Shown here piece by piece: positions 51,655 to 64,000 of a DNA stretch of 64,000 bases (positions within the stretch are counted from its first letter, which is position 1; the number at the start of each line of letters is the position of its first letter). The stretch lies in IMG/VR virus record IMGVR_UViG_3300021400_000252, one strand, 5' to 3'. The notes under the pieces were generated by a model. It searched no databases, had not been told where the DNA came from, and was given only the letters and a program-made list of their open reading frames with translations. The stretch is from a virus. Taxonomy: Duplodnaviria > Caudoviricetes. The position numbers and the translations under genes are program-made.

Positions 51655-53367
51655 ATGATAGAATTATTTTATAAATATAAAGATATAGATAATAATTTAA
51701 TCTTTGAATTAAAATATAATAAAAATTTAATATATAATTCTTTAGAAATTAAACCAGGTGAAAATATTATTTCTCAAACTAATATTAATAATTTTTTATT
51801 TGCACTTTTAAATGAAGATGACTTAAAACTTTATTATAATAATGATAAATTTGTTATTTTAGAAAAAGAAAAATATAAATATTCAATTAAACATAAAGAA
51901 TTAGAACAATTAAATTTTAAACCATTTCCACATCAAGTAGATGCTTTTAATTATCATGTTAAACATAAACAGTGGTTATTATTAGATAGTATGGGATTAG
52001 GTAAAACTCTAGAAATAATTGGTGCAGCTGAACTTCTTTATAAAAGAGGTCTTATAGAGCATTGTTTAATTATTTGTGGAGTAAATTCAATTAAAGAAAA
52101 CTGGTTAAATGAAATCAATAAATATAGTTCTTTATCTGGCATAATTCTTGGACGTAAAGTTAGTAAGAATGGTAAAGTAAGTTATCGTTCGGTAAAAGAA
52201 TGTGTAGAAATTTTAAAGCATCCTATTGATGAGTTTTTTGTCATTACCAATATTGAAAAATTAAGAGGTGGAGGCAAAAAAGGAAAAGATAAAGAAAAAG
52301 ACTTAACTACAGCTTTATTAAAAGGAAAAAATGATTTTGGAATGATCGTTGTAGATGAGATTCATAGAACTAATAATAAAAAATCTCAACAAGGTGCTCA
52401 TTTATTAAAATTATCTTCTGAATATATGGTTGGAGTTACTGGTACTTTAATTACAAATAATCCTATTAGTGCTTATTTACCTTTAGTTTTTACTAAGAAC
52501 GATAATTCTATTTTAACTACTTATAGACCTCAATACGAGATTAAAGATGCAGATGATAGAGTTATTGGATATCAAAATCTAGATGTATTAAGAGAAGAGG
52601 TTGAGAGTTGTTCATTAAGACGAACTCTACCTCAAATTAGATCTGATATGCCTGGTAAATTTATTGAATATGAATATATTGAAATGGAACCTGACCATAA
52701 GAAATTTTATGATGAAATTGTAGATGGAATTGGAACTCAAGTTAACTTAATTAATTTAGAAACTTCTAATTTATTAGCACTAACAACTAGACTTCGTCAA
52801 GCATCTGTAGATCCATCTATTTTATCTTCTAATGACATAAAATCGTCAAAAATTTTGCGTTGTTTAGACTTGGTTGAAGAAATACTCAGTCAAGGTGAAA
52901 AAGTCGTTATAATGTCAAATTTTATTCAACCAATAAAGACATTAAGTGAAGCTTTAAAAGAATATAAACCACTATTAATCTTAGGTGAATTAAGTGCAGG
53001 CGAGCGTCAACGTAATAATAATTTATTTCAAGAAAATGATGATTATAAAATAATTATGGGTACACATCAAGCAATGGGTACTGGCTTAACATTTAATTCT
53101 TCAATGTATTTAATTATGTTAGATACTCCTTGGACTTATTCTTCTTTTGATCAATCTTGTGATAGAATTTATAGAGTAAATAATACAAGACCAGCATTTA
53201 TTAAAGTCTTAGAAAATATTGGAACTATCGATACTAAGATTCATGAAATACTAGATGAAAAGAAAGAATATGAAGATTATATAGTTGATGGAAAAGAAAA
53301 GACTGTTGATAAAGTTCAATTAGAGTCCCAAAGAGAATTATTCTTACGTTTATTATCAGAAAATTAA
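51655..53367 (+). CDS. SNF2-family helicase
   Basis: DSMGLGKT, IVVDEIH, TGTLITN, GTGLTF, QSCDRIYR. Confidence 0.9.
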   Translation: MIELFYKYKDIDNNLIFELKYNKNLIYNSLEIKPGENIISQTNINNFLFALLNEDDLKLYYNNDKFVILEKEKYKYSIKHKELEQLNFKPFPHQVDAFNYHVKHKQWLLLDSMGLGKTLEIIGAAELLYKRGLIEHCLIICGVNSIKENWLNEINKYSSLSGIILGRKVSKNGKVSYRSVKECVEILKHPIDEFFVITNIEKLRGGGKKGKDKEKDLTTALLKGKNDFGMIVVDEIHRTNNKKSQQGAHLLKLSSEYMVGVTGTLITNNPISAYLPLVFTKNDNSILTTYRPQYEIKDADDRVIGYQNLDVLREEVESCSLRRTLPQIRSDMPGKFIEYEYIEMEPDHKKFYDEIVDGIGTQVNLINLETSNLLALTTRLRQASVDPSILSSNDIKSSKILRCLDLVEEILSQGEKVVIMSNFIQPIKTLSEALKEYKPLLILGELSAGERQRNNNLFQENDDYKIIMGTHQAMGTGLTFNSSMYLIMLDTPWTYSSFDQSCDRIYRVNNTRPAFIKVLENIGTIDTKIHEILDEKKEYEDYIVDGKEKTVDKVQLESQRELFLRLLSEN

Positions 53368-53414
53368 TTTTTTCATTTGTATTATAAATTGTACTAGTTA
53401 AGAGAGGTGAAACT

Positions 53415-54002
53415 ATGTTAAATTATTTTAAAGAACAAATGTCTATAATTGAAAAGTCTTTAGAATCTTTATCTGAAGAGAACTTCAATGACATTTTAAA
53501 TCAAGCTGAAACCTGTATTAAAAATGGTGGAAAGCTAGTATTTTCAGGATTAGGAAAAAATGTTCCAATCTGTGAAAAGATTGTAGGTACTTGTACTTCA
53601 TTAAGTATTCCAGCTGTATTTATGCATACTAATACAGCAATGCATGGTGATTTAGGTTATATTGGTAAGAAAGATCTAGTTTTTGTCTTATCAAAGAGCG
53701 GTAATACTGCAGAGTCTATTTTACTTGCAAATTATTTAAATCAACGTGGCGATAGAGCTATAGCTGTTACTTTTAATAAGGACAGTTTATTAAATAAGAC
53801 TTTAAGTACTAATCTTACTTTAGAGTTAGAACATGAAGGCGATAATTGGAATATTGTTCCTAATGCGTCAAGTTCAACTTATTTAATTTTACTTCAAGGT
53901 TTAGCATTACAATTAGCTGATAGACTTGGAATTACATTAGTTGATTTTAAGTATAATCACCCAGGTGGAGCTATTGGAAGCATTCTAAAGGATGTAAAAT
54001 AA
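53415..54002 (+). CDS. SIS-domain sugar-phosphate isomerase (KdsD/KpsF-like, no CBS domains)
   Basis: SGLGKN, AMHGDLG, SKSGNT, HPGGAIG. Confidence 0.87.
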   Translation: MLNYFKEQMSIIEKSLESLSEENFNDILNQAETCIKNGGKLVFSGLGKNVPICEKIVGTCTSLSIPAVFMHTNTAMHGDLGYIGKKDLVFVLSKSGNTAESILLANYLNQRGDRAIAVTFNKDSLLNKTLSTNLTLELEHEGDNWNIVPNASSSTYLILLQGLALQLADRLGITLVDFKYNHPGGAIGSILKDVK

Positions 54003-54054
54003 TTGCTAAATTTTTAACATAGGCTTTGTATTATTACATTGTCTATGTTCTCTT

Positions 54055-54150
54055 AGGGGCTTGGTGTAACGGCAGCACAGCGGTCTTCAAAACCGTAAAA
54101 GGCCGAGTCCAAACCGGCCGGTGCGGGTTCGAATCCTGCAGCCCCTGCCA
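54055..54150 (+). tRNA. tRNA-Trp(TCA), UGA-decoding, long extra arm
   Basis: AGGGGCT/AGCCCCT-G-CCA acceptor, GCGGT-CT TCA AA-ACCGT anticodon arm, GGTTCGAATCC T arm. Confidence 0.92.
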
Positions 54151-54171
54151 GAACAAATAAAAAGTTAGGAG

Positions 54172-54804
54172 ATGATTCTAATGAGTTACTGTAAGAGATG
54201 TTATCTCGAAAAGATTAACCCAGAAGCAAGACAAGAAAACTTTATTTATTTTGAAGAACCAGGTAAGTGTGAATGCTGTGGTAAAACACGTTTATTAGTT
54301 GATTCTTATGAAAATGATGAAGATTATATGTCGATTGCAGAGTGTAATGAAGAAACAAGAAAGCATATTGCTATGGTACAATATTACATTAAATTAATTA
54401 CTGATGAATTAACTCAAAGAGGTATTGACCATGATGCATCTAAATTAGTTTCACCAGAAGTAGAGATTTTTGCTAAGAATACTAAAAAGTTAGCAAGATT
54501 AAAATTCCAAAATGAAAATGGTGAAATGAGTGAAGAATATAAACAAAGTCTAGAAAATATTAGTGAAGCAACAGCACATCACTATGCAGTTAATAGACAT
54601 CACCCAGAACATTATCCTGATGGAATTAATGGAATGGATCTAGTAGATATCTGTGAAATGTTAGCTGACTGGAAGGCTGCTTCATTAAGACAACATGATG
54701 GAAATCTATTAAAGTCTATTGAAGCAAATGCTAAGAGATTTGGAATTAGTCCACAATTAACTAAAATTTTGGTAAATACTGCAAAATTAATTGATAGAAA
54801 TTAA
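54172..54804 (+). CDS. HD-like protein (DUF5662-like) with N-terminal Cys motif
   Basis: HDASK, HHYAVNRHHPEHY, EMLADW. Confidence 0.72.
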   Translation: MILMSYCKRCYLEKINPEARQENFIYFEEPGKCECCGKTRLLVDSYENDEDYMSIAECNEETRKHIAMVQYYIKLITDELTQRGIDHDASKLVSPEVEIFAKNTKKLARLKFQNENGEMSEEYKQSLENISEATAHHYAVNRHHPEHYPDGINGMDLVDICEMLADWKAASLRQHDGNLLKSIEANAKRFGISPQLTKILVNTAKLIDRN

Positions 54805-54831
54805 AAAATTATAAAAAATTTCAAAAAAGTA

Positions 54832-54860
54832 TTTACAAATTTAAGATTTTGTTGTATATT
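54832..54860 (+). promoter_or_regulatory. Sigma70/SigA-type promoter
   Basis: TTTACA-17 nt-TATATT. Confidence 0.6.
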
Positions 54861-54914
54861 AGTAGTGAAGTTAATCAAAAACTTCAAAAAATTAAAAAAT
54901 TTTTAAAAAATATA

Positions 54915-54943
54915 TTTACAAAATCAAAAATTTATTGTATAAT
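54915..54943 (+). promoter_or_regulatory. Sigma70/SigA-type promoter
   Basis: TTTACA-17 nt-TATAAT. Confidence 0.75.
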
Positions 54944-55070
54944 ATAAATGTAAAATGATTTGGTGCTAGTAAGTTCGGAACTAGCTAAGTGGAAAAACCT
55001 AAGTCTCGGCCAAATTTATTTATATTATATGAAAAAATTTAAAAAATATTGTATAATATAAAGTAAACAA

Positions 55071-55704
55071 TTAAATATGCTTAATAATGATTACCTATTA
55101 CCCTAGTGAATGACCGTTTGTTACGGTGCTAGGATAGCGGCTGACAAAGATTCGTAGCTTGCAAAAAATCTTCGTTCATAGACGATAGCCTATGATGGCA
55201 AGTCGATTCGGAAGTATATATTGAAATCAAACCGAACACAATCTTCAAAGAAGAATTACGATAGTCGTTAGTGTATTTGTTATTATTAGAGTTAAGACAT
55301 GATTCTTCTCGGTTCCACAATAGATGATAACCAAAAGTTATATGAATCCTAGTTAGGAATAAGCCTGGAAAACTTACTCAAACCTAGGAAAATCCACAAG
55401 GGACTTGACAGTTGAATACCTAGTAATAGGGATATAAGAGAAGTTTACATGTGAGTAGCCGTATCTGTCGAATACAAAGAAGAACAACCCTTACTTAAAA
55501 GCATGGAACTTTTATAATGATTGTAATTATTTCTGAATACTCGGTGAAAGTTAGAGGTAATGAGTCCTCTCAGTGCTAGACAGCGGTAAGAAGTTTAGAG
55601 GTAGCTCCTTTAAGCTCAGACTTATCGTCACTGTAGTCAAACAACTACCTTAATAATGAAATAAGATGAAAGTCTAATAAGTAGTTATTATTAAGCATAT
55701 TTAA
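55071..55704 (+). ncRNA. Large structured ncRNA, ROOL-like (GOLLD is the alternative)
   Basis: About 630 nt without a credible ORF, closed by a 24-bp terminal stem (55071-55094 with 55681-55704, two G-U), many internal hairpins, upstream TGTATAAT, next to tRNA array. Confidence 0.72.
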
Positions 55705-55739
55705 TAAAAAATAAAAATTTTTGAATTGCTAAAAATAAT

Positions 55740-55750
55740 TAGCTAAATTA
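55740..55750 (+). promoter_or_regulatory. Putative late promoter TAGCTAAATTA upstream of tRNA-array leader
   Basis: Repeated intergenic motif. Confidence 0.62.
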
Positions 55751-55796
55751 AGTGATATCAAATCAGATATCAACAATCTATTTAGGAGATGAAATA

Positions 55797-55931
55797 ATGA
55801 GAACAGTTTTAATGACAAATGTATCTTGGAATTTTAATAACTATGTCTCTTCAAACGTTAATCCGTTTGGTTATTTCGATGCGCCTAATGCGAATGGGTA
55901 TGATGCCGATTATAGTAATTCAAATAAATAG
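55797..55931 (+). CDS. 44-aa leader peptide of the tRNA array (not in ORF track)
   Basis: AGGAG RBS; MRTVLMTNVSWNFNNYVSSNVNPFGYFDAPNANGYDADYSNSNK. Confidence 0.78.
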   Translation: MRTVLMTNVSWNFNNYVSSNVNPFGYFDAPNANGYDADYSNSNK

Positions 55932-56034
55932 AAGTTAAGTTACTGAAAGATGTAGCTTAACAAAAATTAAGCTACAATGAATAAAAGTATCAGTAACAGT
56001 TCCATAGATTGTTTTACATATATTCCCTTTGTTC

Positions 56035-56066
56035 AACGTAGCTAGATGGTTACGTTTTTTATTTTT
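56035..56066 (+). terminator. Attenuator-like terminator between leader and tRNA array
   Basis: AACGTAGCT-AGAT-GGTTACGTT plus T-run; competing upstream helices. Confidence 0.7.
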
Positions 56067-56137
56067 ATTAATATCTTACCGTTAGCTCCTCGGTTTTGAG
56101 CTTCGATCCGTTGTACGTTAAGCCTCGGTAATCCCAT

Positions 56138-56213
56138 GGGGTTGTAGCTCAGTTGGGAGAGCGCTAGCTTTGCAAGCTAGATGTCGCGAGTTCGAGCCTC
56201 GTCTTCTCCACCA
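56138..56213 (+). tRNA. tRNA-Ala(TGC)
   Basis: Cloverleaf, G3-U70, CCA; two T-T mismatches in acceptor stem. Confidence 0.9.
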
Positions 56214-56289
56214 GGGACCGCATGTTCTGAGATAGCGAGACAGTTTTGCAAACTGACTGTTGTGGGTTTGACTCCCACCGGCTCCACCA
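56214..56289 (+). tRNA. Atypical tRNA-Ala(TGC)
   Basis: G3-U70, loop TT TGC AA, T loop TTTGACT, divergent D arm, CCA. Confidence 0.7.
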
Positions 56290-56307
56290 CTAAAATTTAA
56301 TAACATA

Positions 56308-56367
56308 GAGCCTATACTTATTTCTAAAATCTAATAAAGTTCTTTGGGTGAATATAATAGTTAGGCC
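56308..56367 (+). ncRNA. Bulged-stem repeat RNA, copy 1
   Basis: GAG-CCTA-T-ACT-TATTTC...T-AGT-TAGG-CC. Confidence 0.68.
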
Positions 56368-56375
56368 AAGTTAAT

Positions 56376-56452
56376 GGGGGCTTAGCTCAGCTGGTTAGAG
56401 CAGTGGACTGTTAATCCACGTGTCGCAAGTTCGAATCTTGCAGTCCCCGCCA
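56376..56452 (+). tRNA. tRNA-Asn(GTT)
   Basis: Canonical cloverleaf, CCA. Confidence 0.95.
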
Positions 56453-56468
56453 ATAATTAAATATTAAT

Positions 56469-56561
56469 GTCGAGTTGGCAGAGTCTGGTTTATTGCGACG
56501 GTCTTGAAAACCGTTGACGGTGATGAGCCGTCCGTGGGTTCGAATCCTACACTCGACGCCA
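56469..56561 (+). tRNA. tRNA-Ser(TGA)
   Basis: Cloverleaf with long variable arm, G73, CCA. Confidence 0.93.
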
Positions 56562-56660
56562 TAGGTATGCTAGTGGTACCTATATGCGTGGTTTGTTAAG
56601 GGGTTTGTTAACAAGCATACAAAAATAACTAGTTCATGAAAATCAAATTCCACCGTATTT

Positions 56661-56736
56661 GCTCCGTTACGTCAACTGGGAGACTACAATCCCTACAAGA
56701 TTGTGGCTGTAGGTTCGAGTCCTGCACGGAGCACCA
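56661..56736 (+). tRNA. tRNA-Val(TAC), C33 variant
   Basis: CAATC-CC TAC AA-GATTG, canonical T arm, CCA. Confidence 0.85.
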
Positions 56737-56765
56737 TTAAAAATATTAAAGAAGGAGTTAAAGCG

Positions 56766-56843
56766 ATGTTTATCTTAAGTACACGATTTAGCAGCTTAAA
56801 ATTTAATACTTATATAAATGCCGCTTTAGCTGAAATAGATTAG
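56766..56843 (+). CDS. 25-aa Phe-codon leader peptide overlapping atypical tRNA-Phe
   Basis: AAGGAG RBS; MFILSTRFSSLKFNTYINAALAEID. Confidence 0.58.
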   Translation: MFILSTRFSSLKFNTYINAALAEID

Positions 56844-56894
56844 CACTAGGTTGAAGCCCTAGGGATGTTGGAGCATTACCAACAGGCGGCACCA
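56820..56894 (+). tRNA. Atypical tRNA-Phe(GAA), AGCATTA T loop
   Basis: All four stems pair; loop TT GAA GC; CCA. Confidence 0.75.
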
Positions 56895-56899
56895 TATAT

Positions 56900-56975
56900 G
56901 GACAGTTGGCATATGTGGTCTGTGCGCTAGTCTGAAGAACTAGATATCTTGGTTCGATTCCAAGACTGTCCACCA
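56900..56975 (+). tRNA. tRNA-Phe(GAA)
   Basis: Cloverleaf, loop CT GAA GA, CCA. Confidence 0.92.
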
Positions 56976-56983
56976 ACTTAAAT

Positions 56984-57060
56984 CCGGATTTAGCTCAGCT
57001 TGGTAGAGCACTTGGCCTGGGACCAAGGGGTCAGAGGTTCGAATCCTCTAATCCGGACCA
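56984..57060 (+). tRNA. tRNA-Pro(TGG), C33 variant
   Basis: C1-G72, loop CC TGG GA, CCA. Confidence 0.9.
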
Positions 57061-57078
57061 CTAAAAATTAAATAATTA

Positions 57079-57231
57079 GAGCCAAAGCTTATTTCAAATT
57101 TTCAGGGCACCTGCGTGTCGATGGTTCGAATCCATCCCTCCCGACCAGCTAATATAATTATTATATTAGTAGTTATATCTCGGGACGGTAGCTCAGTAGG
57201 TAGAGCAGCAGGATATAAATTTAGCTTGGCC
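57079..57231 (+). ncRNA. Bulged-stem repeat RNA, copy 2, with circularly permuted tRNA domain (YrlA-like)
   Basis: tRNA 3' half 57110-57147, hairpin linker, tRNA 5' half 57181-57212, enclosed by GAG-CCAA-A-GCT-TATTTC / T-AGC-TTGG-CC. Confidence 0.78.
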
Positions 57232-57239
57232 ATATTAAT

Positions 57240-57316
57240 GGTGTCATAGTTTAGTTGGTTAGAATGCCGGCCTGTCACGTCGGAGATCGCGGGTTCGAGT
57301 CCCGCTGGCACCGCCA
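57240..57316 (+). tRNA. tRNA-Asp(GTC)
   Basis: Canonical cloverleaf, G73, CCA. Confidence 0.95.
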
Positions 57317-57321
57317 TAACT

Positions 57322-57398
57322 CGGGATGTAGGCCAGTTGGTTAAGTCGCTGGTTTTGGGAACCAGAAATCGAGTGTTCGAGTCACTCCATTCCGACCA
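57322..57398 (+). tRNA. tRNA-Pro(TGG)
   Basis: C1-G72, loop TT TGG GA, CCA. Confidence 0.9.
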
Positions 57399-57440
57399 AA
57401 TAAGTTGTGGGTATAATAAGACTTGAAACCCTCGAAAAGT

Positions 57441-57515
57441 GTGCGAGTCGTTTAATGGTTAGGACTTCTGCCTTCCAAGCAGATGATGCCGGTTCGATTC
57501 CGGTCTCGTGCTCCA
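57441..57515 (+). tRNA. tRNA-Gly(TCC)
   Basis: Cloverleaf, U73, CCA. Confidence 0.92.
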
Positions 57516-57546
57516 GTAACAAAAATCTTTAAAGGAGAATAATGTC

Positions 57547-57618
57547 ATGGAATATTATTATTATTATCGATATTGCATTAAAAATTTAATAACTATATTT
57601 CGTGGCGTAGTTCGTTAA
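57547..57618 (+). CDS. 23-aa Tyr-run leader peptide overlapping atypical tRNA-Tyr
   Basis: AAAGGAG RBS 9 nt upstream; MEYYYYYRYCIKNLITIFRGVVR. Confidence 0.65.
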   Translation: MEYYYYYRYCIKNLITIFRGVVR

Positions 57619-57685
57619 AGAGGCGAGGAAGTCCGTAAAACTTTCATCTTAGATCCGCTGGGAGCATTACCCAGAGCCACGACCA
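57601..57685 (+). tRNA. Atypical tRNA-Tyr(GTA), AGCATTA T loop, C33
   Basis: CGTGGC/GCCACG acceptor, GAAGT-CC GTA AA-ACTTT, CTGGG/CCCAG T stem, CCA. Confidence 0.68.
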
Positions 57686-57689
57686 CTAT

Positions 57690-57774
57690 GGCCAGATAGT
57701 CTAGCGGCAATGACTGGAGACTGTAAATCTCCTCCCTTCGGGGTTCGTAGGTTCGAGTCCTACTCTGGCCACCA
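57690..57774 (+). tRNA. tRNA-Tyr(GTA)
   Basis: Canonical bacterial Tyr with variable arm, CCA. Confidence 0.94.
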
Positions 57775-57797
57775 TTTTATTGTATTATATATTATAT

Positions 57798-57872
57798 GTG
57801 GTAGTAGTATAACGGTTATTATACCTGGTTGCCATCCAGGAGATGGCGGTTCGATTCCGCTCTATCACTCCA
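57798..57872 (+). tRNA. tRNA-Gly(GCC)
   Basis: Cloverleaf, U73, CCA. Confidence 0.92.
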
Positions 57873-58067
57873 TAAATAGATATTATAAGGTACCTATAAT
57901 ATTCAGTGAAACTCTGATAGTGGTAAAAATACTTTATACTAATTGCAATGTCGTATAGAGTCACTTTGTCCGTACCGGTGAGGTCACACAATAAACTGTA
58001 TTCATCGGCCCATTTAAAAATAATTATTATATTAATAATATTAAATATAAAAAGGAAGTGTTTTATC

Positions 58068-58493
58068 ATGAGTAGTACAAGTATGTACTGGCGTGTTCAT
58101 AGTGACATGCAAACAGCAAGAAAAGAAAAGAATGAAGTTAATAAGAGCATCTTATCATTGCTTTATAGTGAGTTAAATAAGAAAGCTATTGAGTTAAGAG
58201 TTGAAGAGTTAACAGATGCAGATTCTACTAATGTAATCAAGAAATTTGCTAAGCAATTAGATGAAGAGATTGAGTCTAATGTAAAAGTTGGTAGAACAGA
58301 AAAAGCAAACGAATTAACTTATCAAAAGAATTTAATTCAAACATATTTACCTAAGCAATTAAGTGAAACTGAAATTAAAGATATTTTAGCTACTCTAGAG
58401 GATAAATCAATTCCTTCAGTAATGAAATACTTTAAGACAAATTATAATGGCTTAGTAGATATGAGCTTAGTAAGCAAGTTAGCAAGAATGTAA
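58068..58493 (+). CDS. GatB/YqeY domain protein
   Basis: AAGGAAG RBS before ATG 58068; YLPKQLSETEI, VMKY...GLVDM. Confidence 0.85.
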   Translation: MSSTSMYWRVHSDMQTARKEKNEVNKSILSLLYSELNKKAIELRVEELTDADSTNVIKKFAKQLDEEIESNVKVGRTEKANELTYQKNLIQTYLPKQLSETEIKDILATLEDKSIPSVMKYFKTNYNGLVDMSLVSKLARM

Positions 58494-58564
58494 ATTTAAT
58501 AAGTTCTCCAAGACAAGATAAAGTCTATAAAACCTAACAAATTTTAGAATAAGGAGAACTTACA

Positions 58565-58630
58565 ATGAATTTCTTACGCAGAATTGCAGATTTATTCGTG
58601 ATGGTTTTGATGTCTAGTATTAACGACTAA
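58565..58630 (+). CDS. 21-aa leader peptide upstream of tRNA-Met
   Basis: AAGGAG RBS; MNFLRRIADLFVMVLMSSIND. Confidence 0.55.
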   Translation: MNFLRRIADLFVMVLMSSIND

Positions 58631-58650
58631 TTAAAACCATCTTTTTTCTT
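58600..58650 (+). terminator. Terminator overlapping leader ORF, ending at tRNA-Met 5' end
   Basis: GATGGTTTTGAT / ATTAAAACCATC 12-bp stem plus TTTTTT. Confidence 0.6.
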
Positions 58651-58729
58651 GGCTCGGTAGCACAATTGGCTAATGCACTCGGTTCATACCCGAGAGATTT
58701 TGTGAGTTCGACTCTCACCCGAGCCACCA
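58651..58729 (+). tRNA. tRNA-Met(CAT), elongator type
   Basis: G1-C72, loop TT CAT AC, CCA. Confidence 0.85.
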
Positions 58730-58752
58730 TGATATTGTATATTATACTGTAT

Positions 58753-58826
58753 AGGTGCGTCGTTCAATGGTAGGACTGTGGTCTCCAAAACCGCGTATGA
58801 GGGTTCGAATCCTTCCGTGCCTGCCA
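58753..58826 (+). tRNA. tRNA-Trp(CCA)
   Basis: A1-U72, G73, loop CT CCA AA. Confidence 0.93.
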
Positions 58827-58846
58827 TAAAGAAAGGATATGATATC

Positions 58847-59143
58847 ATGGAAGTATATTTTATATCAATGTTAAAAGGATGGGACAAATATGGTCCTACA
58901 GGTCTTAGAACTGTTGGCTATTTTGAAAGCTTTGATGAAGCAGAAGAAAGAGTTATAGGTAATGTGTGTGATTTATATGAAGATGGTTATTGGCCATATG
59001 CAATAATTGAAAACATTGAACCTGGCTTATATCAAATTTGTGAACATCCAATATTTTATAAGTTTAACAAAGAAAAAGAACAATTTGAAAAGATTGATTT
59101 TCCAGAAGAACTTCAAATGTTTAGAGGTTTTACTATCGGGTAG
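58847..59143 (+). CDS. Hypothetical phage protein (98 aa)
   Basis: Track start overlaps tRNA-Trp; AAGGA RBS supports ATG 58847; RTVGYF...CDLYE...YAIIE. Confidence 0.72.
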   Translation: MEVYFISMLKGWDKYGPTGLRTVGYFESFDEAEERVIGNVCDLYEDGYWPYAIIENIEPGLYQICEHPIFYKFNKEKEQFEKIDFPEELQMFRGFTIG

Positions 59144-59153
59144 GAGGTAAGCT

Positions 59154-59660
59154 ATGAATTACATATTCTTAGATGTAGATGGTGTTCTTAATAATGAGAC
59201 ATATTTTCGTCAACACTTAGATGATGATGGAATTTTAGACGAAGAAAATATTAAATTATTAGCTGATTTAGTAAGTAAAACTAATGCTAATGTAGTATTA
59301 TCTTCTTCTTGGCGTACTCTATTTACAGAAAAAGGAAATCCTAGACGTCCTATCTTTGAAAATGGCACTCGTCGTGGTTTTGAATTAAAGAGACTATTAA
59401 AGAAATATGGAATTAAAATCATTGGTAGAACAGAGGTTGCTAAAAATAAATTTGGAGATTACTATGATGTTGGAGAACGTCCAGATGAGATCTTTAATTA
59501 TATAATGCATAACTTAACTGCTGGTGATAAATTTGTTATATTTGATGATGAAGATTTTAGAGGAGGTATGAAGAGATTTGCTAATAATTTTATCATTACT
59601 GATTGGAAGTATGGCTTACAAGAAAAAGATATCAAAAAAGCATTAAAGATATTATTATAA
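59154..59660 (+). CDS. HAD phosphatase of the Swiss-army-knife RNA-repair type
   Basis: IFLDVDGVLN, VVLSSSWR, FVIFDDE, GL. Confidence 0.85.
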   Translation: MNYIFLDVDGVLNNETYFRQHLDDDGILDEENIKLLADLVSKTNANVVLSSSWRTLFTEKGNPRRPIFENGTRRGFELKRLLKKYGIKIIGRTEVAKNKFGDYYDVGERPDEIFNYIMHNLTAGDKFVIFDDEDFRGGMKRFANNFIITDWKYGLQEKDIKKALKILL

Positions 59661-59684
59661 TGTTGTATAATAATATATGAACTT

Positions 59685-59775
59685 GGCGACTTACTCAAGC
59701 TGGTGAAGAGGACGCACTGCTAACGCGTTAGGCCGAGAGATCGGTGCGAGGGTTCGAACCCCTCAGTCGCCGCCA
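59685..59775 (+). tRNA. tRNA-Ser(GCT)
   Basis: Cloverleaf with long variable arm, G73, CCA. Confidence 0.93.
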
Positions 59776-60125
59776 AACAGTTGGTTGATTTAGTCACTAG
59801 GATACCAACACTCATTGGATGAAGACTAACGTCGCGAATGAGAGGTGAAGGAAGAGAATCTATCTTGGCAATTGCTATAGGATGGATTTTAAAGGATACG
59901 ACCTTCTACAAAGGATACCTAATCGTCCAAAAGTCCTTTTATTTAATTAAATATTAAAAATATATTTAAATTTTTTAAATAATATTGTATAATATATATG
60001 TGGATGCCTGAGTCTCTGAGTCGACGGTTAGATATCAGCCATTTAGCGATGGAAGTGATCTAATTATAGCGAAAGAGATAGCTACTGCAGAGCGAGCGTA
60101 CTACGGTCCCTCAGGCCTAATATAT

Positions 60126-60201
60126 TGCGGGCGAGTGAATGCGGTCTCACGCAGGGCTCATAACCCTGAAATACGCGGTTCGACTCCGCGGCCCGCAACC
60201 A
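60126..60201 (+). tRNA. Initiator-type tRNA-fMet(CAT)
   Basis: GGG/CCC at base of anticodon stem, loop CT CAT AA, T1-A72, CCA. Confidence 0.85.
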
Positions 60202-60238
60202 ATCGGTTGGGAATGGCAAACCCTCAAGCTCAGTTACC

Positions 60239-60576
60239 GATGCCAGAAAGACGATGCGATCGAGTTATTTATTTTCGATCTTAAATAAGATAATAGATCT
60301 GGAAATCTGGTTGGCTAGTTGGCGTGAACCTAGAAATAGGAGCGTTTGCAACAGACCTACAAGATGCGATCGTGAGTAGGCAAGCACAGGCAAGAGACAG
60401 AGAATGGGATGCTTTTAAATGTAAGCTACGGTTGAGTCATTCTGCAGAGGACACAAGGGTCACCAAGGATCAAAGACCAAAACACGGGTTGATAGTTTAA
60501 AATGGTAAAACGCCGGCATGAATGTCGGAAATGTTGTTCGAGACGATAATACCCACCAGGTTACGGTTCTGGCATC
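60239..60576 (+). ncRNA. Unidentified structured RNA with embedded tRNA-like domain
   Basis: GATGCCAGAA/TTCTGGCATC closing stem; GC-rich, no long ORF; tRNA-like 60486-60558. Confidence 0.5.
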
Positions 60577-60659
60577 TACACAAGCCATGGTTAGGAAGAT
60601 GCTAGCTTTAGCTAAAATATTGGCTAAATTATAAGTATTAAAATTTTATATGGAGACTA

Positions 60660-60791
60660 ATGATGGTAGTAACATTAATTTGTACTGCTATTATCTTAAT
60701 TGCATTTGGTTTTGCAGCTCATTATATTGATTCTTCTTATGAAGATTTCAAAGAATATATGGAAACTCAAAATAAATACAATGATAGATAG
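60660..60791 (+). CDS. 43-aa single-pass membrane peptide (not in ORF track)
   Basis: GGAG RBS; MMVVTLICTAIILIAFGFAAHY...; GGCTAAATTA upstream at 60622. Confidence 0.6.
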   Translation: MMVVTLICTAIILIAFGFAAHYIDSSYEDFKEYMETQNKYNDR

Positions 60792-60917
60792 TAACCTATA
60801 AATTTGCTTATAGCTAATTACTGTAAGCTAATTTTTAGAGATATCATGAAAACGTTTTCTTCAAATTCTCCAGAAAAATTTTAAAATTTATTGTATAATA
60901 TAATGATCAAATAATTA

Positions 60918-60999
60918 GAGGCTATACTTATTTCTTAAAAGTAGGTTATCACAGGTTCGAATCCTGTATCCGCCACTCGGCAGATATGTTAGTTAGTCC
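60918..60999 (+). ncRNA. Bulged-stem repeat RNA, copy 3, with T arm plus loop-closed acceptor stem
   Basis: GAG-GCTA-T-ACT-TATTTC...ACAGG TTCGAAT CCTGT ATCCGCC-ACTC-GGCAGAT...T-AGT-TAGT-CC. Confidence 0.75.
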
Positions 61000-61025
61000 T
61001 ATATTATTTGCTAAATTATGATGTA

Positions 61026-61122
61026 GAGGCTGTACTTATTTCTGAAGTTAAACAACTAATACAATATGAGATACTTGGATCATATGATCAAAGTGGTCTC
61101 ATATATCAAATTTAGTCAGTCC
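61026..61122 (+). ncRNA. Bulged-stem repeat RNA, copy 4
   Basis: GAG-GCTG-T-ACT-TATTTC...long hairpin...T-AGT-CAGT-CC; TTGCTAAATTA at 61008. Confidence 0.7.
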
Positions 61123-61145
61123 ATTAATTTAATAAAAAATTATTC

Positions 61146-61204
61146 GAGCCTATACTTATTTCGAAAAATTATAGAAGATCATGGAAAATACAGTTAGTTG
61201 GGCC
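61146..61204 (+). ncRNA. Bulged-stem repeat RNA, copy 5
   Basis: GAG-CCTA-T-ACT-TATTTC...T-AGT-TGGG-CC. Confidence 0.7.
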
Positions 61205-61229
61205 AATATAATTTACAAAAATATTCCTA

Positions 61230-61289
61230 GAGTTTATGCTTATTTCTCAAATAAAAAATAATAGGTTGATAGTAAGTAGTAGCTAAACC
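61230..61289 (+). ncRNA. Bulged-stem repeat RNA, copy 6
   Basis: GAG-TTTA-T-GCT-TATTTC...T-AGC-TAAA-CC. Confidence 0.7.
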
Positions 61290-61387
61290 AGAGAATATAA
61301 ATTTGAAAATTATTTGGCTTCCGGCATGAGTGTTGGAAGCTTTTAATTTTATATAAATAGTTAAAAAAGAAAGGAAGATTTAAAACT

Positions 61388-63418
61388 ATGACAAAACAAG
61401 AAATTTTATTTAAGAGACATTATTTATTAGAGGAAGTAGGCGTAGAACCATCAGTTACTACTGCTTATTTAAATGCGTACTTATTAGCTAACTTTGGTAT
61501 CGAAGTGGATAAGCCAGCTAAGTTAACAAAAGGAATGATTAAGTTAATCTCTGATACTATGCATTTAGATGTTCCACATTCATTCTATGCTAACCCTCAA
61601 CATATGAGATACTTCACTTCTGAAGAGTTATTAATTGAACAATTAGTTTCATATTTAGTTGTTGAATGTACTGGTAATGGTGCTATAGATCCAGAGCACC
61701 CAGAAAAGTACGATAGAATTGAAGTATTTAAGAAAACATTACCTAACTATGTAGTTGGTGATGAAATTAAGTTAAGAAAGTTCAATATCTTAACTAATGA
61801 TGAAGCTGACGTAGAATTAACAAAGATTGCTAAGTCTTATGCTGAATATACTCGTCCACTTTCATTAGATGAGAATGATGAATTTATGTTCTTACTTGAG
61901 AATGGATATTTTAAGGATGAATTTGGTATTGCATGTAAGGAGACTGTCTTTACATTAATTGACAATGTCGACATTTCTTATGCTAGATTCTTAGATAAGA
62001 AGGATATTGTAAAATATTCAGTATTAAAGTTTGGTGAAAATAAGTCTTTCAAGGATTTATCTAAGGAAGATTTAGCAACATTAAACTTCATTAGACAATT
62101 AGCAACTTATGCTCATTATTGCCCACTTTCTAAGAAACAAGCAAAGATGTATAATAAGTTAATCAAAGTAGCTGGAATCGATGAGAAGAAAGTTTCTAAT
62201 GATAAATCTCCAGATAAGTTAGCTATGGCTAAGTTAGATGCTGGTGATATTGTTGGTGCTGCAAAGATTTATGCTAAAAATGGTTCTATGTTAGAAAGAC
62301 ATATTAAGATGTTATTATCAAGAGCTAATCCAAGAGAAGCTATTGAAATCTTAGATTTATTACCAGCTAAGAATCCGATTGCATTATACCAAATGGTTGC
62401 AAATATGCAAGCTGATGGAAACGAAGCAAGAGTATTCTCATTCAAGAAACGTAATCTAACTAAGACTCATGTTGAAACTGAGTATGAAACTAAGTGGAGA
62501 AAGTCTAGATTAACTGAAGGTACTAAGAAATTATTACATGATGAAGCTTTAAATAAGATTGATGATCACTATAGTGAATTACCATCTTTAGGAAAGATCT
62601 ATATCAATCCAAACTTCTACAGAACTATGATTCCAACTAATACTTCAGCATCTGGTCAAGGTTTAGATGTACCTCCAACAGGTTCAAGAATTGCTATCAG
62701 AGGAACTGCTATTAGAACATTCGTTCGTTGGAAAGATATCCACGATGTAGATGCAGACTTCTCTGCTATTAAGGTTGATAAGTTTGGTAATTGTACATTT
62801 GGTAATTATATGTACTTCGGAAATTATCACGAAAAGCCATTTGGTAACGACGCATTATTCTCAGGTGATGATCGTTCAGCTAATGGTTGTGAATATGTTG
62901 ATATTGAATTAGAAGGTATGAAGAAACAAGGATATAGATACATTGTATTTGCATTCCATGGTTTTGCTGGAAAGTTCAACAACTGTGAAGTTGTTTGTGG
63001 ATATCAAGATAAGACTAACTTAGCAACTAAGGCTTGGGATCCAAAGAATATCGAATTCCAATTCAGAGTTCGTGGTGATTCAAGTGTTTGTCAAGCATTT
63101 GCTATTGACTTAGAGACTAAAGAAATTATTGTATTAAATCAAATGGACGACAGCATATCAAGAGTTGTAGATAAAAATACATTCAAGAGTGTTGCAAGAT
63201 ATTTAAACGATTCAGCTTTAGATCTATCTATGGGTAGAATTCTAGAACACCGTGGTGAAGTTGTAGCTACTCCTGAGGAAGCTGACATTGTGTTCGATAA
63301 TGAATATCAACCAACTGAGTCTCAAGTTGCAGTACGTTCTTACAATGTTGAAACATTAGTTTCTCTTGTAAATGATGGTACTATTGAATTACCAAAGAAG
63401 GAAATAGTAGAGGAGTAA
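61388..63418 (+). CDS. 676-aa protein, helical N-terminus plus TerD-like C-terminal domain
   Basis: IRTFVRW...DVDADF...FSGDD...GCEYVDIEL...RYIVF. Confidence 0.6.
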   Translation: MTKQEILFKRHYLLEEVGVEPSVTTAYLNAYLLANFGIEVDKPAKLTKGMIKLISDTMHLDVPHSFYANPQHMRYFTSEELLIEQLVSYLVVECTGNGAIDPEHPEKYDRIEVFKKTLPNYVVGDEIKLRKFNILTNDEADVELTKIAKSYAEYTRPLSLDENDEFMFLLENGYFKDEFGIACKETVFTLIDNVDISYARFLDKKDIVKYSVLKFGENKSFKDLSKEDLATLNFIRQLATYAHYCPLSKKQAKMYNKLIKVAGIDEKKVSNDKSPDKLAMAKLDAGDIVGAAKIYAKNGSMLERHIKMLLSRANPREAIEILDLLPAKNPIALYQMVANMQADGNEARVFSFKKRNLTKTHVETEYETKWRKSRLTEGTKKLLHDEALNKIDDHYSELPSLGKIYINPNFYRTMIPTNTSASGQGLDVPPTGSRIAIRGTAIRTFVRWKDIHDVDADFSAIKVDKFGNCTFGNYMYFGNYHEKPFGNDALFSGDDRSANGCEYVDIELEGMKKQGYRYIVFAFHGFAGKFNNCEVVCGYQDKTNLATKAWDPKNIEFQFRVRGDSSVCQAFAIDLETKEIIVLNQMDDSISRVVDKNTFKSVARYLNDSALDLSMGRILEHRGEVVATPEEADIVFDNEYQPTESQVAVRSYNVETLVSLVNDGTIELPKKEIVEE

Positions 63419-63445
63419 AATCCTTTACTATTTTCTAAAAAAGTA

Positions 63446-63474
63446 TTTACAAACATTAAAAAATGTTGTATAAT
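63446..63474 (+). promoter_or_regulatory. Sigma70/SigA-type promoter
   Basis: TTTACA-17 nt-TATAAT. Confidence 0.75.
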
Positions 63475-63509
63475 ATAAATGAAATATGGAAAGTGAGGTG
63501 AATATAGCT

Positions 63510-64000
63510 ATGTTAAAAATCAAATTATATCCATGTTTCGAGCATTGGTTAGAATTTAATAATATCTGGTTATATTCTGATCCACACTTCAATGATCCAG
63601 AAATGGTTCATCTAAGAAAGAATTATATTTCTGATGAAGAGCAGGTTAAAAGAATTAATGCCAAAGTTGGTAAAAAAGATTTATTAATTTGCTTAGGAGA
63701 TGTAGGAGATATTTCTTTTGTTTCAAAGTTAAGAGCTGGATATAAAGTATTAATTAAGGGTAATCATGACGATAAAGGTGATGCCTACTATCAAAGAGAA
63801 ATTATCGAAAGATTTTCTAATGAAAATATGGATGAATTAGATAAAACAACATTTGCATTAGCAGGAGTTACTGGCGAACAGGATATTATCCATAAAATAG
63901 TTAGAAAATATACTAAGGTTGAAGATAATCACTTATTTGATGAAGTATATTCAGGACCAATTTGGATTGCTGAGAAAATCTTATTGTCTCATGAACCAAT
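63510..64000 (+). CDS. Calcineurin-like metallophosphoesterase (runs off window)
   Basis: SDPHF, LGDVG, KGNHD, SHEP; GAGGTG RBS. Confidence 0.85.
   Translation, partial: MLKIKLYPCFEHWLEFNNIWLYSDPHFNDPEMVHLRKNYISDEEQVKRINAKVGKKDLLICLGDVGDISFVSKLRAGYKVLIKGNHDDKGDAYYQREIIERFSNENMDELDKTTFALAGVTGEQDIIHKIVRKYTKVEDNHLFDEVYSGPIWIAEKILLSHEP

Follow-up and report, generated by a model that had tools for sequence, protein, structure and literature searches.

Positions 55740–56066 of a 64,000-nucleotide (nt) stretch of tailed-phage DNA (IMG/VR record IMGVR_UViG_3300021400_000252; the whole stretch is called the window here, and coordinates are counted from its first letter) hold a short open reading frame (ORF) and a predicted intrinsic terminator, placed ahead of an array of phage transfer RNA (tRNA) genes. 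We propose, with a probability of about three in four, that this element is a ribosome-mediated transcription attenuator for the tRNA operon behind it, and one of two paralogs in a rumen phage of about 244 kilobases (kb). The central observation is compositional: each of two leader peptides draws, over most of its length, on the amino acids whose tRNAs are encoded in the block that follows it. We regard this link between leader composition and tRNA block as holding beyond reasonable doubt in this phage lineage, while the attenuator mechanism and its direction, which come from modelled RNA folding, appear well supported for leader 1 and less well for leader 2.

Leader composition and tRNA block content

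Leader 1, an ORF of 44 codons preceded by a ribosome-binding site (RBS), is followed on the same strand by the terminator and then by the tRNA genes, the first of which begins 207 nt past its stop codon, an arrangement that an earlier note made from the letters of the window alone had described correctly. Codons 8–43 (55818–55925) use all ten of Ala, Asp, Phe, Gly, Asn, Pro, Ser, Val, Trp and Tyr and nothing else, again in agreement with that note. These ten are every non-Met amino acid served by the tRNAs of block 1, which in the window, 3′ of leader 1, comprise Ala, Asn, Ser, Val, Phe ×2, Pro ×2, Asp, Gly ×2, Tyr, Met ×2, Trp and Ser; both Ser and both Gly isoacceptor classes are sampled by the leader codons.

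The earlier note had taken these ten amino acids plus Met for the tRNA set of the phage, which is right for block 1 in the window but not for the whole phage, where a second block lies past position 64000. A 12.3-kb contig (L008), found via the 676-amino-acid protein at window positions 61388–63418, is 100% identical to 54076–64000 and extends 2.4 kb further, through tRNAs for Met, Glu, Glu, Thr, Glu, Gln, Ile, Leu, Leu and His. Block 2 is completed, with Lys, Arg, Lys, Lys, Arg, Cys, Leu, Thr, Leu and Gln, by L013, a stretch of a 243.9-kb contig that bears the same two leader peptides. Block 2 consists of 20 tRNAs beyond the window end, serving Met, Glu, Thr, Gln, Ile, Leu, His, Lys, Arg and Cys; blocks 1 and 2 therefore give the phage tRNAs for all 20 amino acids, and the set seen in the window is the first block only. 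On extension, the composition match first seemed to be an artefact of where the window happened to end, a reading overturned by leader 2 and the full block 2.

Ahead of block 2 lies a second leader, an ORF of 38 codons whose residues 8–36 include all nine of, and only, Lys, Gln, Leu, His, Arg, Cys, Glu, Ile and Thr. This core set equals exactly the amino acids missing from the core of leader 1, and exactly the non-Met set of block 2. Three of the block 2 tRNAs, those for Lys, Arg and Cys, were predicted from leader 2 before being seen and were then found in L013. A tRNA with a CAT anticodon is present in both blocks, and both leaders start with Met. At the level of isoacceptors, the codons of leader 2 cover Lys-UUU/CUU, Ile-GAU and an ATA reader, Arg-UCU/ACG, Leu-UAA/UAG, Thr-GGU/UGU, Gln, Glu, His and Cys.

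The statistical weight of this match was assessed with a partition test, in which all 92,378 splits of the 19 non-Met amino acids into sets of ten and nine were scored by the number of matching leader residues. The split made by the real tRNA genes was the best of the 92,378, with 70 of 79 residues matching (p = 1.1e-5), and every other split scored below 68; each leader core, moreover, holds every amino acid of its own set. The 36-residue restricted run of leader 1 is the longest across the six frames of the window.

Codon choice in leader 1 is also unusual. Six of its codons each make up less than 5% of the codons for their amino acid in phage genes (GCG ×2, GCC, CCG, GGG and GTC), with GCG at 1%, GCC and CCG at 2%, GTC at 4% and GGG absent from the long ORFs; CCG, GCG, GCC and GTC had been called rare in the earlier note, and they are. 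None of 20,000 simulated synonymous recodings matched this rare-codon choice (P < 5e-5), and the leader 1 ortholog of a close relative, L031, has seven codons below 5% usage. Such codons may have been chosen because they make decoding time responsive to tRNA supply.

Relatives of the phage provide a view of how the leaders evolve. L020 shares the two-block layout of the window phage, and its YqeY protein is 85% identical; all 38 residues of its leader 2 ortholog fall in the set. The two leader 2 orthologs differ at 12 residues, with all 12 differences remaining in the set (null 0.49 per change, p = 2e-4) and several of the L020 replacements having needed two or three base changes. AAG occurs once per ortholog, at codon 27 in one and codon 31 in the other, and ATA likewise once per ortholog, at codon 35 versus codon 5; both orthologs have one CGT, one ACG, and both CAT and CAC. 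For leader 1, two further variants are available, P0002 (on the 1-kb contig L007) and P0008 (on L031). Indels of 3 nt and 6 nt leave the frame intact, so that ORF conservation, which the earlier note had made a test of its proposal, is borne out across three variants. Core substitutions stay in the set in four of five cases (Phe to Val, Trp to Tyr, Ser to Ala and Asp to Asn), and Lys44, which is out of the set, is invariant in all three variants.

An IMG/VR search with DUF5662, YqeY and HAD_SAK_2 yielded two useful relatives, the others being too distant. These are L005, a 166-kb contig with 32 tRNAs, and L004, a 223-kb contig with terminal repeats and 28 tRNAs, each with essentially one tRNA block and, immediately before the array, a single RBS-led short ORF and a strong terminator. 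The leaders of both use 19 of the 20 amino acids, all except Trp; we discounted this usage as evidence for a complete leader serving a complete block, since it is not statistically unusual. In the L005 leader family (P0004–P0007) the frame is kept through indels, the terminator is invariant, and the N- and C-terminal sequence is conserved. Homology between the L005 and window modules is suggested by position, by the 5′ untranslated region (5′UTR), by the start region and by a PFGY motif, against which a BLASTP comparison of leader 1 with the L005 leader was not significant (E = 0.48). The 5′UTR motif GCTAAATTAA is common to leader 1, leader 2 and the modules of L031, L020 and L004, with a shorter form, CTAAATTA, in L005; in the small hairpin that accompanies the motif, differences among relatives fall in the loop. 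A further member of the L005 leader family (L010:520–1176) has, after its terminator, a tRNA fragment and a protein gene in place of tRNA-Trp, which suggests an insertion at the head of that array.

Wider searches returned little beyond these. A blastn search of 50,697 phage records matched only tRNA-Ala, tblastn with the leader 1 peptide gave no significant match, and IMG/VR scans with the leader 1 and leader 2 alignments gave no match, while phmmer against 1.8 billion representatives returned only one further leader variant and one spurious repeat protein. Among 110 matches in a scan for the 5′UTR motif followed by an RBS and ATG, none was a short ORF followed by tRNAs.

Predicted switching of the leader transcripts and competing explanations

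Four helices listed downstream of leader 1 in the earlier note, including 55939–46 with 55990–97, are all complementary as described there, but the switching logic had been left unsolved; folding now provides a candidate solution, in which pairing between two segments termed r1 and r3 (55934–43 with 55952–61) decides the outcome (Table 1). Leader 1 was folded as the RNA available before the right arm of the terminator is made, with ribosome-covered bases masked. The sensor segment r1 begins 5 nt after the first base of the stop codon. With the A site at any codon up to 43, r1:r3 is predicted to pair with a probability of 0.99–1.00, and the AGCTAC of r4 pairs with the left arm of the terminator (0.98–0.99); masking to 8–14 nt beyond the first base of the stop codon lowers r1:r3 to 0.00–0.09 and raises r3:r4 to 0.81–0.90, and with a ribosome at the stop the full RNA gives a terminator probability of 0.89–0.90. 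With r1 free, the antiterminator state lies at −32.0 versus −29.7 kcal/mol for the terminator state, with a barrier of 15.1 kcal/mol. Among 300 dinucleotide shuffles of the spacer, one equalled the difference in terminator probability, 0.77.

When codon 44 (Lys) occupies the A site of a stalled ribosome, the folding is already that given by a ribosome at the stop, which would explain why the out-of-set Lys44 is exempt from the composition rule. Because the sensing segment lies past the stop codon, the whole ORF would be usable as a sensing track, and this would account for as many as ten amino acids per leader. The ribosome-dependent switch was also computed for the L031 and L007 orthologs, whose helices are invariant, with changes falling in loops or turning U-G into U-A. 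The terminator stem is itself invariant in L007, and in L031 and L020 it shows one U-G to U-A change and a variable loop. The long-range helix 55772–81/56004–13 shows no covariation among the relatives, both of its arms being invariant.

From these computed states we postulate a sequence of events. Transcription, starting from the TGTATAAT promoters around 54936 and 55050, would pass through a ROOL RNA (see below) into leader 1. Were all codons decoded promptly, the ribosome would park on the stop codon and cover r1, r3 and r4 would pair, the terminator would form and the operon would be off; a delay at any sensing codon, or no translation at all, would allow r1 to pair with r3 and r4 to take the left arm of the terminator, giving read-through. 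Since the tRNA products would decode their own leader, the module would act as a negative-feedback sensor of tRNA supply. Operon 2 (Glu, Thr, Gln, Ile, Leu, His, Lys, Arg, Cys and Met) would be governed in the same way by its own leader, and the existence of a second block with its own complementary leader lends support to the idea, advanced in the earlier note, of a leader that senses for and gates its tRNA array. The physiological signal would presumably be a shortage or cleavage of host tRNAs. Phage tRNAs have been described as counter-measures to tRNA-cleaving host defences (PMC11464382, PMC11555353), which makes such defences a plausible trigger; naming anticodon nucleases as that trigger is conjecture.

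Leader 2 is predicted to form a five-segment chain analogous to that of leader 1, with helix H1 beginning 8 nt after the first base of the stop codon. Under a ribosome mask at the leader 2 stop, H1 (0.95) gives way to r2:r3 (0.69–1.00), and passing from the r2:r3 state into the antiterminator state would mean crossing a barrier of 15.6 kcal/mol; with H1 intact, and before r5 is made, the antiterminator reaches 0.94. All four helices are kept in L020, where three changes in H1 retain pairing and r3, r4 and r5 each carry one additional nucleotide in register, as compensatory changes.

Several observations weigh against the attenuator as drawn here. Its folding model assumes that the ribosome reaches 8 to 14 nt beyond the A site. 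The composition rule has exceptions: five of the 44 residues of leader 1 (Arg2, Thr3, Leu5, Thr7 and Lys44) and four of the 38 of leader 2 (Asn3, Asn7, Val37 and Ser38) are out of set, and the model does not account for the exemption of Val37 and Ser38. TTG and GAG are absent from leader 2 despite the presence of tRNA-Leu(CAA) and tRNA-Glu(CUC). In variant P0002, Pro23 is replaced by the out-of-set Gln, and P0008 has lost its Trp codon; tRNA-Trp lies in the later part of block 1 in the window and in L013, and the L031 contig ends before that position. Block 1 of L020 includes a tRNA-Cys, its leader 1 being cut by the contig end. The earlier note had expected leader composition in relatives to track their tRNA content, which is the case for leader 2 of L020, whereas the leaders of L005 and L004 are consistent with it but their 19-of-20 composition is not significant (P ~0.10–0.17). 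Finally, a sigma-70-like match at 56268–56296 could feed the later tRNAs independently of the terminator.

The leaders could also be translated and linked to their blocks while acting in another mode or with the opposite sign, through Rho or nuclease protection, through stall-triggered processing, or with the hairpins serving as processing or stability elements. Leader 2 offers some encouragement here, as its terminator is favoured at equilibrium in every state, equilibrium folding gave no switch in terminator probability, and the barrier from antiterminator to terminator is estimated at only 6.6 kcal/mol; its switch consequently rests on a kinetic argument and is less secure. The L005 module, with a weak antiterminator and a terminator 7 nt ahead of the first tRNA, points the same way, as do two pairings that both modules contain and the attenuator model leaves unused, one between the RBS and the ORF and the other a long-range helix enclosing the ORF. 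We nonetheless consider such a mode unlikely, given the sharp dependence of leader 1 on ribosome position, its thermodynamically favoured antiterminator when r1 is free and the rarity of an equal response among shuffles, and given that L020 has compensatory changes in r3, r4 and r5, which speak for selection on both the antiterminator and the terminator pairings. The very AT-rich sequence would also seem to offer no obvious C-rich loading site for Rho.

Two further explanations dispense with regulation altogether. The compositions of the two ORFs would fit disordered (Asn/Tyr/Ser-rich) and helical (Lys/Glu/Gln/Leu-rich) sequence classes, and functional small proteins with a coincidental match to the tRNAs would suit the conserved termini of the equivalent L005 family, including the PFGY motif common with leader 1. 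Off-frame restricted runs of 28–29 residues occur elsewhere in the window, so that run length alone is unconvincing and it is the link to the tRNA split that carries weight. The sorting of tRNA genes into operons does not follow from anything in peptide structure, yet no other split does as well as the real one; what is kept between orthologs is set membership rather than sequence, with rare codon classes shifting position but persisting; leader 1 uses codons that phage genes avoid; and neither a PHROGs scan nor tblastn, word-index and phmmer searches of billions of proteins returned a homologue of known function. We therefore hold a small-protein role to be very improbable. Still less credible is a chance, untranslated open frame between ROOL and the tRNAs: the ORF is short, the gene call in the window starts at Met6 and the codon usage is unlike that of phage genes, against which stand a strong RBS at ideal spacing, a frame kept through indels in the three variants, a paralogous leader before block 2 with an ortholog in L020, and the composition rule itself.

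The tRNA operon, ROOL and neighbouring genes

The window has a G+C content of about 28%, and its long ORFs, all on the + strand, include tail-fibre, baseplate and helicase genes, which indicate a large phage. It carries 17 tRNAs, all on the + strand, between 54055 and 60201. The phage is present in samples ERZ28612955/66, ERZ1756108/9 and SRR873599/609. Beyond the TGTATAAT copies at 54936 and 55050, the motif scan found none, either before the terminator or after it, until 59664. ROOL, leader 1, the tRNAs of 56138–58826 and the YqeY-like and HAD_SAK_2 genes accordingly appear to form one unit dependent on read-through at 56066. The same motif heads the leader modules of L005, L004, L031 and leader 2; in L013 there is one copy ahead of leader 2 and none inside block 2.

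Table 1 Features of the leader 1 module and tRNA operon in the window, and of the leader 2 module in L008
Feature	Position	Strand	Details and basis
Two extended −10 promoter motif copies, TGTATAAT	54936, 55050 (54936–55057)	+	Motif scan; last ones before leader 1
ROOL RNA (Rfam RF03087)	55078–55695	+	246.9 bits versus gathering score 99.1; E 8.8e-56; model positions 1–574 of 574
Conserved 5′UTR motif GCTAAATTAA and small hairpin	55742–55773	+	Hairpin ~55753–59 with 55766–72; motif comparison; minimum-free-energy (MFE) fold
Long-range helix, 5′ arm	55772–55781	+	Perfect 10-base-pair (bp) complement of 56004–56013; encloses ORF; in full-module MFE
Ribosome-binding site AGGAGA	55784–55789	+	Sequence; 7 nt ahead of ATG; conserved in L007, L031
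Leader 1 ORF, 44 codons	55797–55931	+	ATG at 55797, TAG at 55929–31
r1, sensor segment	55934–55943	+	Just 3′ of stop; 10-bp helix with 55952–61
r3	55951–55961	+	Folding; alternative partners r1 or r4
r4	55966–55976	+	Pairs r3 (55951–60 with 55967–76) or, via AGCTAC at 55970–75, terminator left arm
Helix Pa, 3′ arm	55990–55997	+	Pairs 55939–46; lengthens r3:r4 hairpin in terminated state
Predicted intrinsic terminator	56035–56066	+	9-bp stem (56035–43 with 56048–56) and T-run; terminator scan, folding
tRNA operon 1	56138–58826	+	Ala, Ala-like, Asn, Ser, Val, Phe ×2, Pro ×2, Asp, Gly ×2, Tyr, atypical Tyr, YqeY-like gene, Met, Trp; no own promoter
Final two block 1 tRNAs, Ser-GCU and Met	59685–60201	+	Each with own TGTATAAT promoter (59664, 59986)
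Leader 2 ORF, 38 codons	L008:10267–10383 (window-equivalent ~64342–64458)		Ahead of block 2; TGTATAAT promoter, GCTAAATTAA, AAAGGAG RBS, hairpins, terminator
Leader 2 H1	L008:10389–402 with 10407–20		Begins 8 nt after stop codon's first base
Leader 2 r2:r3	L008:10407–17 with 10423–33		Folding
Leader 2 antiterminator r3:r4	L008:10421–32 with 10487–98		Folding
Leader 2 terminator r4:r5	L008:10489–99 with 10507–17		Folding

The full-length ROOL RNA lies between the TGTATAAT promoters and leader 1 and is probably co-transcribed with leader 1 and the tRNA operon. ROOL and GOLLD RNAs have been reported near tRNAs and in prophages, with co-transcription suggested (PMC5737381), and the reported proximity of ROOL to tRNAs fits this locus; ROOL has also been found to build RNA-only assemblies (bioRxiv 10.1101/2024.12.08.627333). 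In the close relative L031, ROOL is missing at the same place and a TGTATAAT promoter is found there instead, about 85 nt before leader 1, so the leader module can do without ROOL. Short G+C-richer segments between successive TGTATAAT promoters upstream of the leader region (54950–55015 and L031:7905–8060) are possible small structured RNAs.

A G+C-richer stretch of 70 nt (56067–56137) separates the terminator from the first tRNA. It is conserved in L007 and L031 and may be a tRNA remnant; L020 has no counterpart of it, and its first tRNA begins within about 10 nt of the T-run. Directly after tRNA-Ala, an aberrant tRNA-like gene (56214–56289) has TGC in its anticodon loop and weakly matches the tRNA-like part of the transfer-messenger RNA (tmRNA) model; L007 (801–951) and L031 (8523–8673) have two tandem tRNA-Ala(TGC) genes, the divergent copy coming first. 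Further along the array, a short ORF (57547–57618) that is RBS-led and holds a string of Tyr codons reads into the atypical tRNA-Tyr-like gene just before the canonical tRNA-Tyr. Tyr-rich counterparts exist at L013:2498–2560 and L005:4123–4185, and such an ORF may be a single-amino-acid leader within the array.

Genes for DUF5662, YqeY-like and HAD_SAK_2 proteins (54172–54804, 57948–58493 and 59154–59660, respectively) are interleaved with the arrays of the window. Past block 2, L013:13252–19597 carries two nucleotidyltransferase-family genes, a Tpt1-type RNA 2′-phosphotransferase gene, a Thg1-family gene and a phage tmRNA, and we count this neighbourhood of tRNA and RNA-repair genes in favour of an attenuator. 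At 60663–60791, a 42-amino-acid ORF with a hydrophobic N-terminal half, conserved in L020 (9976–10101) and unrelated to the leaders, probably encodes a small membrane protein. Apart from the arrays stands a 96-nt tRNA with anticodon UCA (54055–54150). In L005 (1365–2496) a tRNA(UCA) lies directly upstream of a tryptophanyl-tRNA synthetase gene, and in L004 (273–3805) it does so past a 790-amino-acid ORF, a pairing of genes that suggests UGA may be read as Trp somewhere in the phage clade; the long ORFs of the window stay open under the standard code.

Significance and relation to known systems

If the proposal is correct, tRNA genes would be governed by a simple principle, a sensor read by the same tRNAs that it regulates, and classical attenuation would be extended from between one and three amino acids to nine or ten per leader. 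The predictions are block-specific and could be tested in ordinary laboratory systems. ROOL would be placed on the same transcript as a sensor of tRNA supply, and for annotation a short ORF of restricted composition together with a terminator before a tRNA block becomes a rule to search by. More tentatively, and at odds that we put somewhat below even, giant phages may run their tRNA supply as self-referential loops, each operon being turned on only by slow reading of its own codons. The phage studied here, with its 20 amino acids divided between two sensors, could then detect and repair the loss of particular host tRNAs block by block, for instance following cleavage by defence nucleases that target tRNAs; ROOL may also be part of the module, and this orphan RNA would thereby gain a first functional context.

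Enterobacteria contain multivalent attenuators, ilvGMEDA (Ile, Leu, Val) and thr (Thr, Ile), in addition to the trp, his, leu and phe leaders. The element described here resembles these amino-acid operon attenuators in having a short RBS-led ORF of regulatory codons and mutually exclusive antiterminator and terminator hairpins set by the position of the lead ribosome, and it resembles ilvGMEDA and thr in that several amino acids would be sensed by one leader. There, however, biosynthetic enzymes are controlled, whereas here the controlled products are tRNAs that would directly decode the sensor. There one to three amino acids are represented in a short cluster, here nine or ten over 29–36 codons. 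The trp leader terminates when it is untranslated, while here r1 lies 3′ of the stop and an absence of translation is predicted to give read-through; and the known elements are bacterial, this one viral. Related examples include the his leader (PMC4046918), pheL (PMC3082878) and a Leu-rich attenuator peptide of S. aureus (PMC5794164). Searching the literature, we found no published account of leader-peptide attenuation of tRNA genes, in keeping with the earlier note, which knew of no composite sensor of this kind.

T-box riboswitches are comparable in that tRNA status is sensed and a terminator is gated before translation-related genes. A T-box binds one uncharged tRNA directly, independently of translation, whereas here sensing would proceed by decoding speed, and an Rfam search of 53000–64000 returned no T-box (RF00230) or other cis-regulatory family, only ROOL, tRNAs and sub-threshold chance matches. 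With respect to the ROOL family, a full-length copy directly upstream of leader 1 and close to tRNAs agrees with what is reported; its position, lodged between promoter and leader, differs, and L031 lacks ROOL there. The modules described here combine an RBS-led ORF, codons tied to the downstream product, a predicted terminator with no phage promoter motif after it (up to 59664 for leader 1) and predicted mutually exclusive pairings; for leader 2 the change between H1 and r2:r3 is sharp, and that between antiterminator and terminator is kinetic only. We classify the system as a probable case of ribosome-mediated attenuation, one that would differ from the known cases in its tRNA target, its breadth, its sensing segment past the stop codon and its viral origin.

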